A DNA stretch of 64,000 nt, taken from assembly GCA_964016885.1 (NCBI GenBank), contig OZ024742.1, forward strand, positions 23,126,001 through 23,190,000, given 5' to 3'. The DNA comes from Eledone cirrhosa. Its lineage: Eukaryota. How positions within the stretch are numbered: position 1 is the first letter of the stretch; the number at the start of each line of letters is the position of its first letter. Under the pieces are notes generated by a model. The model searched no databases. It saw nothing but the letters and a program-made list of their open reading frames with translations, and was not told the origin of the DNA. The position numbers were made by a program, and so were the translations under genes. Shown one piece after another: positions 51,470 to 56,545 of the stretch.

Positions 51470-51629
51470 AGTAATAATAATAAATGTGAAGACTAAAATA
51501 AAAAGAGGGTTCAATAAGGATAAATATATATCAAATATATAAGGACCGTAGAGCAAATGTTGAGTTTCAGAAGATCCCGTTAAGGGTGAAAGCAACGATT
51601 CTTTGCTTAAACTTTAATCTGTTATTTTA
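51470..51629. mobile_element. Family N head-to-head pair with non-overlapping arms
   Basis: 51470-51558(-) corresponds to 53541-53628; 51564-51629(+) corresponds to 53468-53533. Confidence 0.8.
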
Positions 51630-51729
51630 TATATATATATATATATATATATATATATATATATATATATATATATATATATATATATATATATATATAT
51701 ATATATATATATATATATATATATATATA

Positions 51730-53628
51730 TTAAAATAACAGATTAAAGTTTAAGCAAAGAATCGCTGCTTTCACCCTTAACGGGATCTTCTGAAACTAAC
51801 AAAGTCAATCTGTAAACGCAGAAGTGGATATTTCAAAAAACGTTGCAACCGGAGGAAGACCGGAAGACGATACTTTGGTCCGTGGTAACGTTCGCTGGCA
51901 AAGAACGGGAAAAAACGAATAGTACGTCATTAATAGGAGCGGTGAAAACAATTACGCGCAAAAACAGGATCACGTTTATGGTATAAAAGAGGTCGTAGAC
52001 TAATGTTCTCTTAGGTGGTGCATAGAGACGTTCTCTGGCAGTGAACGAAAAAACGAAGATAATAAGTCATATGTGGATCGTGTAGAACAATAGTATGCAA
52101 AGACAAAACCATGTAAATGGTATAGCAGAAGTTGTAGACTAAAATTCTAACAAGGAGACCAAATGAATCTCCGCTACAGAGTGAAGAACAAAGTAAATAA
52201 ATACAATACAGAAGTAATAGAAACAAATAAATAGATACACGCAAACAGATACGTACATACACAAGCATACGCAAAACCTTACCATAGGTATACAAAACCA
52301 CGCACATATAAATATGTGTGTGTGTGTATGCTTATGTACAAATAAATAAATAATTATATAAACGTATATAAGTAAATAAATACGTATATAACAAGCGCAC
52401 ACACATACCTACAAATAAATACACGAATGTTCGGAGACGTAAGTCAACTAAAACAAGAAGTACACATATACACACACCCACCATACGTACGAACCTGCAT
52501 ACTCACGCAGACGCAAAACTCCCGTATACACATAGCCAAACCCTAAATACCAGAATATGTAAAAATTATACGCCATAACATTCAAATATACGTACGAGAA
52601 GGTATACATACCTTCACAAAACATACGGGTAATATATATTTACCTATGCAAATAAGTAAAGGAATAAACAAAACTTATACTTAGCTCCCACATCAAGACG
52701 TAAAATATCCACGTATAGATCGTGCTATCCGTTAAGGTATAACGTGGGGCTGTAATACAGGAAAGTTTTGTGCAATTTATGTTTACAAGCCGAAATTGCC
52801 TCACATTTTTTGTTTAAAGATGTGGTCTGTGGCGTAGAGTATTTCCAGGGCCTCGGGGGCGCAGAGATCACATGGTCTTTTATTTCCGTTATACGATCTA
52901 GCCCTAGCTAGGATCTCCCAGTGTAAATTATATTGGGTGTAGTTGTCTTTTAGACTCCAGATATTAGCTGAAAGTGACGTCATATTCCTTCTTAGAGGGT
53001 AACGAAAAGAATGGGTATGCATGTAAAGACGCTGCTTGAAACTATTGGCGGTTAACCCTATGTAGGCCCTACGGGACGTGGGTGTTACAACCTTACATTT
53101 GTAGACAATGTTACTAGAGAGGTATTTCCCGGATAGGGGGCAATCAGCCCGATTCCTACAATTACAGTTAGTACTAACTACAGGGTTGCACGTGTTCCTA
53201 CGACTAGGTAGTTTAGCTAAATTTGAAGCTGTGATGTTATGTGCAAGTCTAGGAGTCGTAGAATAAGCAATTTTAATAGTATTTCTATTAAAAATTTTAC
53301 TATATTTATGTGTAGGGGGAAAAGGCTTCGTAATAAGGGAAAGAAAGATCTTAGCTAATGGTGTGGCCAGCGAACGTTTCCACGAACCAAAGTATCGTCT
53401 TCCTGTCTTCCTCCGGTTGCAACGTTTTTTGAAATATCCAGTTCTGCGTTTACAGATTGACTTTGTTAGTTTCAGAAGATCCCGTTAAGGGTGAAAGCAG
53501 CGATTCTTTGCTTAAACTTTAATCTGTTATTTTAATAAATATTTGCTCTACGGTTCTTATATACTTGATATATATTTTCCTTATCGAGCCCTCTTTGGAT
53601 TTTAGTCTTCAATTTTATTATTATTACT
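51730..53628 (-). mobile_element. Family N (Naiad-like) PLE: GIY-YIG + 3' UTR on minus (51730-53365) with inverted terminal arm (53366-53628)
   Basis: NCNCRNRADCPLSGK..SNIVYKC...AYIGLTANSFKQR...WEILARA..RPCDLC..E. Confidence 0.88.
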
Positions 53629-53734
53629 ATATATATATATATATATATATATATATATATATATATATACACATATATATATATATATATATATATATAT
53701 ATATATATGTGTGTGTGTGTGTGTGTGTGTGTGT

Positions 53735-53955
53735 ATAGTAATAATAATAAACGTGAAGACTAAAATCTGAAGATGGCTCGGTAAGGATAATATATATATC
53801 AAATTTATAAAACCTATAGAGAAAATATTTATTAAAAAATAGATTAAAGTTTAAGCAAATAATCACTCCTTTCACCCTTAACGGGATCTTCAGAAGATCC
53901 CGTTAAATGTGAAAGCAGCCATTCTTTTCTTAAACTTTAATCTGTCATTCTAATA
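53735..53955. mobile_element. Family N palindromic terminal pair (axis 53892)
   Basis: ACGGGATCTTC-A-GAAGATCCCGT; left arm reaches the distal end, right arm the proximal end. Confidence 0.82.
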
Positions 53956-54189
53956 TATATAATAAGTGTAATCTGAGGTTTTCGAATATTAATAATAATA
54001 TACGATTCGTTTGCAATTATGCAAACAAGCCTCCTTTTAAAATGAATGTCAGTAGAATGAGTCTTTCATTCATGCTGTTATGTAAAGAGAACAGCAGACA
54101 CTAATATTTCTTGGAATAACCCTTCATCAGTACAGTTCACTGTTCAACTGTCAGAGCTTGTGAAAATATATGATACTTTCTAAAATATA

Positions 54190-54309
54190 CAGTGACTGAC
54201 TGGCCTGATTTGCATATTAGCAGACTGGCTTATCAGTCCGATCTGCATAGTACTAGATCCACTGATCAGCAAGATTTGCATATCAGCAGACTGGCCAGTC
54301 AGTTTACTG
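54190..54309. mobile_element. Tc1/mariner-type MITE, 120 bp
   Basis: TA|CAGTGACTGACTGGCC ... GGCCAGTCAGTTTACTG|TA; internal direct repeat GATTTGCATAT(T/C)AGCAGACTGG. Confidence 0.65.
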
Positions 54310-54376
54310 TATACGAGCGTTGAATGGCCAGCTTTGCCATATTAGATATACATAAAAAAATAAATATATATATATA

Positions 54377-54735
54377 TAGAAAAAGAGATGAAATCGAAAA
54401 TGCAACTGGAGTCTTATTTTTTTTTTTAAATATATATATTTATTTGGTTCCTTTACCGGTTTCGCAGTTCTTCTGCTTTTCAAAAGGTGAGTTGAGATGA
54501 AGGGTCTGTGGTTTTTCTCACATCAGATGTGAGAAAAACCACAGCCCCTCCATCTCAACTCACCTTTTGAAAAGCAGAACTGCGAAACCGGTAAAGGAAC
54601 CAAATAAATATATATATTTTTAAAAAAAAATAAGACTCCAGTTGCATTTTCGATTTCATCTCTTTTTCTTTATACTTTCACTCGTGTAGGACACCTCGGT
54701 TATTTTTCATTTTGTAAAAAAACCTCACTTTCTAA
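54377..54735. mobile_element. Family A palindromic terminal pair (axis 54525) with two U3-A8 HHR motifs
   Basis: TTTCTCACATC-A-GATGTGAGAAA; plus HHR CCTT-TTGAAAA-GCAG aa CTGC-GAAACCGGTA-AAGG at 54563-54597. Confidence 0.87.
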
Positions 54736-54798
54736 TATATATATATATATATATATATATATATATATATATATATATATATATATATATATATATAT

Positions 54799-55220
54799 AA
54801 ACGTTTGGAGTTGGAAGGCCAAAACAATGCAGGTATGGATATAGAATATAAATACAAATGCAAAAGATATTGTTGACAATTAGTCATTTACCTTAATTTT
54901 ATTTGAACTTCCTTAATTTTCGAGATAATATCTCTTCTTCGCGTGGAAGTAAAGGGGTTAATCCAGTGTTCTAATGCTGTCAGCATGACTTGGCAAGCTA
55001 ATTAGAAAACTTGATTAACCCCTTTACTTCCCTCCGAAGAAGAGATATTATCTCGAAAATTAAGGATAGTCAAATAAATATAAGGTAAAATACTAATTGT
55101 CCAAAATATCTTTAGGATTTGTATATATATTCTATAACCATACCTGCATTGTTTTGGCCTTCCAACTCCAAACGTTTATACCTCATTACGCAATGCTTCA
55201 AGTAAACTACAATTTACTTA
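54799..55220. mobile_element. Head-to-head terminal pair related to the 25337-28242 family
   Basis: 54799-54975 mirrors 55001-55180; HHR remnant CCGAAGA-AGAGATATTATCTC-GAAAATTAAGG; right arm has a 40-nt tail. Confidence 0.82.
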
Positions 55221-55291
55221 TATATATATATATATGTATATTTACTTATATATATATATATATATATATATATATATATATATATATATAT

Positions 55292-56545
55292 AGTAATAAT
55301 AATAAATTTGACGACTAAAATCCAAAGAGGGCTCGATAAGGATAAATATATATCAAATATATAAGAGCCGTAGATCAAATAAAAGACCATGTGATCTCTG
55401 CGCCGCTGAGGCCCTGGAAATACTCTACGCCACAGACCACATCTTAAACAAAAAATCTGAGGCAATTTCGGCTTGTAGACATAAATTGTACAACACTTTC
55501 CTGTATTACAGCCCCACGTTATACCCTAACGGATAGTACGATCTATACGTGGATATTTTACGTCTTGATGTGGGAGCTAAGTATATGTTTTGCTTATACC
55601 TCTACTTATTTGCATAGGTAAGTATATATTACCCGTATGTTTTGTGAAGGTACGTATACCTTCTCGTACGTATATTTGATTGTTATGGCGTATAATTTTA
55701 TATATTCTGGTAAATATGGTTTGGCTATGTGTATACGGGAGTTTTGCGTCTGCGTGAGTATGCAGGTTCGTACGTATGTAGGGTGTGTGTATTGTGTACT
55801 TCATGTTTTGGTTGACTTACGTCTCCGAACATTCGTGTATTTACATGTAGGTATGTGTGTGCGCTTGTTATATACGTATTTATTAATTTATATACGTTTA
55901 TATAATTATTTATTTATTTGTATACACGCATACACACACACACATATTTATATGTACGTGGTTTTGTATACCTATGGTAAGGTTTTGCGTATGCTTGTGT
56001 ATGTACGTATTTGTTTGCGTGTATGTATTTATTTATTTATTTCTATTACTTCTGTATTGTATTTATTTACTTTGTTCTTAACTCTGTTGCGGAGATTCAT
56101 TCGGTCTCCTATTTAGAATTTTAGTCTACGACTTCTGCTATACCATTTACGTGGTTTTGACTTTGCGTGCTATTCTTCTCCACGCTCCTCATATGACGTA
56201 TTTTCTTCGTTTTTTTCGCTCATTGCCAGAGAACGTCTCTATGCACCACCAAAGAGTATATTAGTCTACGACCTCTTTTATACCATAAATGTGGTTCTGT
56301 CTTTGCACGTAATTGTTTTTCACCGCTCCTATTAATGACGTATTATATTCCTATTTTCCCGTTCTTCGCCAGCGAACGTTTCCACGAACCAAAGTATCGT
56401 CTCACTGTCTTCCTCAGGTTGCAACGTTTTTTGAAATATCCACTTCTGCGTTTACAGATTGACTTTGTTAATTTCAGAAGATCCCGTTAAGGGTGAAAGC
56501 AGCGATTCTTTGCTTAAACTTTAATCTGTTATTTTAATAAATAAA
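55292..56545 (+). mobile_element. Family N pair: inverted distal tail (55292-55380) + EN end and 3' UTR (55377-56545)
   Basis: 55377-56540 mirrors 51730-52885; junction shares AAAT. Confidence 0.88.

Follow-up and report, generated by a model that had tools for sequence, protein, structure and literature searches.

The window analysed here, 64,000 nucleotides (nt) of Eledone cirrhosa DNA (contig OZ024742.1, positions 23,126,001 to 23,190,000), contains four head-to-head pairs of one repeat family, which we assign below to the Penelope-like elements (PLEs). All four lie within TA tracts, and in every pair one outer end falls at a distal site of the element and the other at a proximal site, as a preliminary description of the window had correctly reported for these four places. 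The arms, the part of an open reading frame (ORF) carried by pair 2, and the end sites and fold in template coordinates are as follows (pLTR, pseudo-long terminal repeat):

51471..51561, minus strand: distal arm of pair 1, tail only, halting at the proximal site
51558..51629, plus strand: proximal arm of pair 1, from the hammerhead-like motif to the proximal site
51731..53369, minus strand: proximal arm of pair 2, a 5'-truncated element (linker, GIY-YIG region, 3' untranslated region and pLTR) ending at the proximal site
52801..53364, minus strand: C-terminal part of the ORF in pair 2, with CxCX5C linker, GIY-YIG-type motif and CxxC
53366..53628, plus strand: distal arm of pair 2, pLTR and 93-nt tail
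53468..53518, plus strand: predicted hammerhead-like type I topology, variant core CAGAAGA...GAAA, predicted cut after 53513
53533..53542, plus strand: proximal end window, registers TTTT-A, AATA and AATAAATAT
53627..53630, plus strand: distal end site, beyond which the template runs on into the ORF in tandem copies elsewhere
53737..53895, minus strand: distal arm of pair 3, older, with 86% identity to pair 2
53889..53955, plus strand: proximal arm of pair 3, palindromic junction
55292..55381, minus strand: distal arm of pair 4, tail only
55377..56543, plus strand: proximal arm of pair 4, from the end of the endonuclease region to the proximal site

Overlap between the arms is seen in pairs 2 and 3 and is absent from pairs 1 and 4, whose distal arms start at the ATTTG-TC stretch; the lack of overlap and this start both agree with the earlier description. 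Short sequences are common to both arms at the junctions: GCCA in pair 2 (53366-53369), TTCAGAA at the palindromic junction of pair 3 (53889-53895), and AAATA in pair 4 (55377-55381), which had been correctly located and read one base too short, as AAAT. The two sites had been placed about 95 nt apart; there are indeed two, the proximal one being a window of registers, so that the spacing is 86-95 nt. Taken alone, four mixed pairs out of four have a chance of 1 in 16 if ends are picked independently.

Exact matches to a 24-nt motif that lies immediately upstream of the proximal site number 37,984 in the genome (0 for the reversed motif as a control), and those to a 28-nt motif of the tail number 20,846. 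The pairing counts given here are samples, taken from the first 30.5 Mb of contig C1: from the lists of exact matches, the first 100 for the proximal motif were all fetched, as were 95 of the first 100 for the tail motif, giving 132 regions, two of which were merged to leave 131; L-numbers denote sampled genomic loci. Counting the window, 253 arms have a 3' end in the ribozyme region or beyond it; 117 of these ends are proximal, 129 distal and 7 elsewhere, and the two fixed sites seen in the window hold for the sample. Outside the window, these regions hold 83 head-to-head pairs, comprising 77 proximal+distal, 2 distal+distal, no proximal+proximal and 4 with one end unassigned; one of the two distal+distal pairs (L181) is split by 148 nt of TA. 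After the removal of three duplicated pairs (two in L143, one in L191), 74 proximal+distal pairs stand against 2 like pairs (p=3.7e-20 against independent end choice, under which half of the pairs would be mixed), and the mixed pairing suspected from the window thus exceeds random pairing. The proximal-motif sample is biased toward proximal+proximal pairs and still gives 39 mixed pairs without a single like pair. The arrangement is genuine and lies far outside chance expectation. Unpaired arms number 76 (40 distal, 36 proximal), besides 17 other fragments; seven of these 76 seemingly solo arms hide a tiny inverted arm, which is always of the opposite class. Inverted pairs make up about half of the sampled insertions, in keeping with the earlier claim that they represent the normal integration route of this family.

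Identical inversion junctions across loci, which the preliminary description had named as the mark of DNA-level duplication, are not what was found: 70 distinct junctions occur among 81 mixed pairs (window included), and one pair of loci, L089/L191, has a common flank together with a common junction insert. In 79 junctions, the exact common bases number 2-7 in 34 cases and one in 15, and the remainder are blunt (11) or contain inserts (19). The commonest junction, of the kind found in pair 3, is nearly palindromic, lies in the ribozyme core and has 395 exact matches; 90 of these, taken from contigs C1 and C2 and including 4 loci of the first sample, comprise 78 proximal+distal pairs, no like-with-like pairs and 12 loci with an end outside both site windows. 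Read along the distal arm, 35 of 78 loci have A and 43 have T as the mismatch base of this palindromic junction, and both bases occur within each of three tail haplotypes. This resolution to either base fits two complementary DNA (cDNA) ends annealing over a T:T mismatch, whereas fold-back of the distal cDNA would give A only. When 62 distal arms from palindromic junctions were compared with 43 others, their forming a single clade was weakly rejected (p-AU 0.037). The sequence evidence supports an origin of the pairs by de novo junction formation, locus by locus.

In four tandem copies (L095, L101, L111 and L116), the sequence continues past the distal site into the ORF, and both end points are therefore internal to the template. 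At least three TA units are present at both outer ends in 74 of the 81 pairs, and the common end registers have 2-4 nt in common with (TA)n. A longer TA-rich run inside the tail ends none of the arms of the first sample and arms at 3 of the 90 palindromic loci, two of which are duplicates. Because this longer run is so rarely used, it is likely that protein or RNA structure, not base pairing, fixes the sites; the self-complementarity of (TA)n, which the preliminary description had brought forward, does not choose them.

The hammerhead-like fold sits 20-30 nt upstream of the proximal site, and its 5' half is the 5'-truncation hot spot of both arm types. The CAGAAGA core (53473-53479 in the window), with a CUU cut triplet, is found in 89 of 94 copies, which are hammerhead-like by predicted topology; an Rfam search gave no hammerhead match in the window element. 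This type I topology differs from the minimum-energy fold, and unconstrained folding of the end region was no better than that of shuffled sequences (z 0.44 and -0.55). Ribozyme cleavage was rejected as the cause of 5' truncation, as 2 of 250 arm 5' ends lie near the predicted cut, compared with 61 in the hot spot. Same-strand jumps from varied upstream points into the pLTR, near template positions 53360-53385, were seen in L005, L030, L061, L077, L084 and L178; this jump-in zone is also where the distal arm of window pair 2 starts. A splice acceptor near 53366 was considered as the source of these jumps and dropped, since the jump points vary. Separately, the near full-length distal arms of L095, L120 and L128 stop at most about 110 nt from the proximal site of the upstream repeat, and that of L101 passes it; such stops hint that two primers may use successive repeats of one tandem transcript.

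A complete natural unit of the element is carried by L101: it is 3,258 nt long and has a single ORF of 708 amino acids, with a reverse transcriptase followed by a C-terminal GIY-YIG domain. The protein shows YRDD, YIG, DKT, RW, the CxCX5C linker, a GIY-YIG-type motif, CxxC and CxH. DKT, which replaces DKG, lies in SDKTGN at residues 114-119, with D and K invariant in 68 of 68 alignment rows; RW is at residues 37-38, the third residue of the RWK motif being R; the linker cysteines are C566, C568 and C574, and the C-terminal residues are C661, C664, E667, N680, C689 and H691. By inspection, the CCHH motif is absent from this protein. The motif residues are kept among 87 aligned relatives, a selection from the 150 best matches; the Pfam search had no match for the L101 protein itself, and matched RVT_1 in 5 and GIY-YIG in 3 of the relatives. 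A search for a solved structure of a relative found none. The Hydra-clade marks given in the relevant part of PMC8557442 are one ORF with reverse transcriptase and C-terminal GIY-YIG, DKT, CxCX5C, CxxC, CxH, no CCHH, and (TA)n targets; because the predicted protein motifs match them, the element is assigned to the Hydra-clade PLEs. An apparently non-coding sister family (L068, L079, L080, L083, L097, L100, L103, L120 and L132) has the pLTR end and the proximal site in common with it, and seems to differ from it upstream and, from half way on, in the tail; some of the unpaired proximal arms are members of this sister family.

The two arms of a pair were compared in 74 proximal+distal pairs. They overlap in 48, in some by more than 1 kb, and do not in 26; 7 of the 74 abut, and in 41 the proximal arm extends beyond the distal arm in the 5' direction. 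With these 41 extended proximal arms and 26 pairs without overlap, one arm is no copy of the other, and simple fold-back is excluded. Of 280 polymorphic positions in 19 informative pairs, 259 are identical between the arms, where 162 would be expected, and 39 minority variants are common to both arms, compared with 4.1 on re-pairing (at most 14 in 500 re-pairings). Two cDNAs written on one RNA would be the most economical reading of this agreement; as alleles do not distinguish one molecule from one source locus, the single RNA is something that we infer. Unpaired distal arms halt preferentially at the proximal site (12 against 7, p ~1e-6); the second target end may be held there, or the preference may reflect mere AT-richness.

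On these sequence data, it is probable that reverse transcription is primed by both 3' ends left by a staggered cut in (TA)n, each at its own fixed internal site, and that a single transcript serves both; if forms with one and with two RNAs are taken together, the priming of two cDNAs from both target ends at the two fixed sites is more probable still. Such a mechanism is akin to twin priming, yet the overlap between most arms and the fixed position of both sites set it apart from the L1 type. The endonuclease would cut the two (TA)n strands about 13-18 nt apart, a distance suggested by the target-site duplications (TSDs) given below. One end would then prime at the distal site, its partner at the proximal site, each paired with the RNA over 2-4 nt; what is directly seen at this step are the end points and the way in which they are paired. 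Both cDNAs would stop at variable points, often at the hammerhead-like fold, and the frequent extension of the distal cDNA past the proximal site would call for strand displacement, or else for a tandem transcript with a second repeat. Finally, the free cDNA ends would join by microhomology, bluntly or with a short insert, followed by fill-in, and where a sole cDNA survives, an ordinary un-inverted copy would result. A broader proposal, tentative and in our view a little short of an even chance, is that one complex holds both staggered ends and loads two fixed internal sites of one RNA as a built-in step of endonuclease-bearing PLEs across clades, with tail, inverted pLTR and 5'-truncated copy as outcomes of one reaction.

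Several observations weigh against priming from both target ends on one RNA. Overlapping arms are the majority, and the abutting, non-overlapping arms that the preliminary description had taken as the L1 hallmark do not turn out to be the rule; stops of paired distal arms at the proximal site are not significantly in excess (9 against 30, p=0.095). Neither arm leads among the overlapping pairs (16 and 17, with 17 ties): two enzymes in file on one RNA might favor the proximal arm, so that the missing lead counts against a collision on a single RNA. In L128, L163, L189 and window pair 2 the arms differ at 2-4 polymorphic sites, and shared alleles could also reflect age or have arisen through gene conversion. 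One true distal+distal pair is known (L183), and proximal+proximal pairs exist in two other, mutually related PLE families (L273 and the window copy at 25337-28241). A loose TSD test gave no excess (9 of 94 against 9.35 expected), and the junction-anchored test that was positive (duplications in 9 of 105 flank pairs against 1.3 in shuffled data, at most 6 in 1000 shuffles; 8 of the 9 are 13-18 nt long) was defined after this null result; it should be noted that pure TA flanks are uninformative for TSDs. From the priming scheme of the preliminary description, the internal sites, the strict pairing and the use of both target ends are retained, and its single RNA stands as the probable form, with the four discordant pairs set against it.

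Both target ends might instead prime on two RNAs, most often transcripts of one source copy, if an asymmetric complex imposed a distal start on one and a proximal start on the other. Dual priming of this kind is proposed as an L1 variant in PMC2837659, and it agrees with the frequent overlap, with the lack of a leading arm and with the four pairs of differing haplotypes. Two free RNAs should, however, yield like-with-like pairs, which make up 2 of 76 and 0 of 78 pairs in the two samples, and the arms agree at 259 of 280 sites despite the presence of several subfamilies; the upstream and downstream pLTRs of one tandem copy can moreover differ (L111, L095), which explains the discordance without a second RNA, and we regard two RNAs as rather unlikely. 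Priming from a single target end is improbable: here the distal cDNA would switch to an antisense transcript of an existing copy, run to its end and anneal to the target, a scheme whose parent is the antisense-template idea set out in part of PMC3846280. It would explain non-overlapping arms, overlap and discordant haplotypes alike, and template jumps are observed in L077, L084 and L178, but antisense transcripts would derive from copies of either class (129 distal, 117 proximal) and make distal+distal pairs common, whereas one or two were found; nor does it predict the allele agreement, or the existence of long proximal-ending copies that are not inverted (L093, L111 and L116).

The ingredients of fold-back are likewise published, with self-priming described in PMC3846280 and endonuclease resolution of the tail in PMC8557442, in the sections on inverted copies: a single cDNA would self-prime at the palindrome and copy itself to the proximal site, and the endonuclease would resolve the intermediate. 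The palindromic junction is a real hot spot, given its 395 exact matches, and the arms are alike within a pair; yet 41 of the 74 proximal arms hold sequence that the distal arm lacks, 26 pairs have no overlap, the T found in 43 of 78 mismatches contradicts the A expected throughout, and the hairpin would require a 1-nt loop, all of which makes this route highly improbable. A further idea, that a small number of ancestral inverted units multiplied through DNA duplication or were retrotransposed again as a whole, is refuted as a general cause and has next to no probability as such, although it may apply to a few percent of loci: L142/L143 and L335/L336 look duplicated, and L089/L191 have their junction insert and flank in common. 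Against it stand the 70 distinct junctions among 81, the presence of both central bases in three haplotypes at the recurrent junction, and the weak rejection of those arms as one clade.

Inverted pLTRs with a one-sided tail have already been described for PLEs, as stated in parts of PMC8557442, PMC3846280 and PMC8969392. Like the Hydra-clade PLEs characterized in PMC8557442, the present family has (TA)n targets, tandem pLTRs, an inverted 5'-truncated copy and a tail at one end; it differs from that account in a tail of 93 nt rather than 30-40 nt, in a unit of 3.26 kb that slightly exceeds the 3 kb stated, and in its CAGAAGA hammerhead-like core. The account there has the tail "often" on one side and ascribes this to endonuclease resolution; here the one-sidedness is near absolute and counted. 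The nearest biochemical data, in the main text of PMC11167929, concern the Poseidon PLE of the green anole. In vitro it cuts and extends both strands and initiates internally at two positions on either side of the tail, a short way downstream of the hammerhead; it is predicted to form a dimer, and ribozyme cleavage is not required for this reaction. The present family resembles it in two internal sites, the probable start sites, that lie on either side of the tail, and in its AT-rich target. Poseidon belongs to a different clade, however, and the main text of PMC11167929 does not tie its two sites to the two arms of one inverted insertion; its start sites are described there as non-homologous to the cut DNA, whereas the common registers seen here match (TA)n at 2-4 nt.

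With L1 twin priming, as outlined in the pertinent part of PMC2837659, the pairs have in common head-to-head segments and inner microhomology, probably also priming by both target ends, and possibly a target duplication. In the L1 scheme presented there, the poly(A) is primed first and a variable internal site second, and the resulting segments are free of overlap and show an internal deletion; the present family has no poly(A), its two sites are both internal and fixed, and roughly two thirds of its pairs have overlapping arms. The Penelope elements of Adineta vaga, as portrayed in portions of PMC3846280, also have head-to-head inverted pLTRs, junction palindromes and a tail on one pLTR, and carry TSDs, to which the present pairs offer a possible counterpart; the explanation offered in that part, self-priming on an antisense template, is contradicted here by arms that are not contained in one another and by the two-way resolution of the mismatch. 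We found no paper that proposes twin priming for PLEs, within a search whose scope stopped short of the subscription 2005/2006 PLE reviews and supplements, which may bear on novelty; the word "twin" is absent from PMC8557442 and PMC3846280, and "priming" and "tail" are absent from a 2026 retrozyme preprint (10.64898/2026.07.22.740005). The elements and their layout are well known, and it is the linking of inverted layout, one-sided tail and two start sites as a form of twin priming that appears new.

How the inverted and tandem structures of PLEs form is named as an open question in the relevant passage of PMC8557442, and PMC11167929 leaves the steps after first-strand priming unvalidated. Under the near-absolute proximal+distal rule, the start sites observed in vitro are linked to the two arms of a single insertion. 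The rule speaks against self-priming, the explanation in the literature, and yields sharp predictions that an established kind of assay could address. If both target ends do prime on one RNA, a telomerase-related reverse transcriptase routinely writes both ends of a break from one RNA, with no conventional second-strand step; the mechanism offers a possible answer, open to testing, to how the long-known inverted PLE copies form.

Three other PLE families of the window were sampled at 30 motif loci each, with pair classes assigned by reading of the outputs; two of the three encode a GIY-YIG domain of a different type. The family at 49388-51390 gave 8 mixed and 0 like pairs (8 of 8 resolved pairs), that at 54800-55219 gave 9 mixed pairs and one proximal+proximal (L273), and that at 25337-28241 gave 8 mixed pairs and 2 left unassigned, its window copy being itself proximal+proximal. 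The proximal+distal rule reaches beyond the main family, yet it is not absolute. The window copies differ in form: 49388-51390 is an inverted PLE insertion with a piece of a GIY-YIG ORF (49988-50719) and a tail of 42-47 nt on the left arm only, 54800-55219 is a short pair of inverted pLTRs, one of which carries a tail of about 40 nt, and 25337-28241 is a palindromic PLE insertion of 2.9 kb with both arms ending at the proximal site.

The window also has eight to nine TA-flanked inverted inserts with an extension on one side, as well as two symmetric ones. Those with extensions of 38-138 nt include 544-788, 30343-30464, 30522-34263, 42049-42513, 44744-44843, 45385-48110 and 54379-54668. Elsewhere, positions 12172-24244 consist of about 252 copies of a 48-nt tandem satellite; a C-rich reverse transcriptase frame followed by a GIY-YIG-like frame at 5245-7351 looks like another PLE; and an asparagine-rich frame at 32591-33979 runs into PLE-like reverse transcriptase motifs, recalling the N-rich inserts mentioned in a part of PMC3846280.

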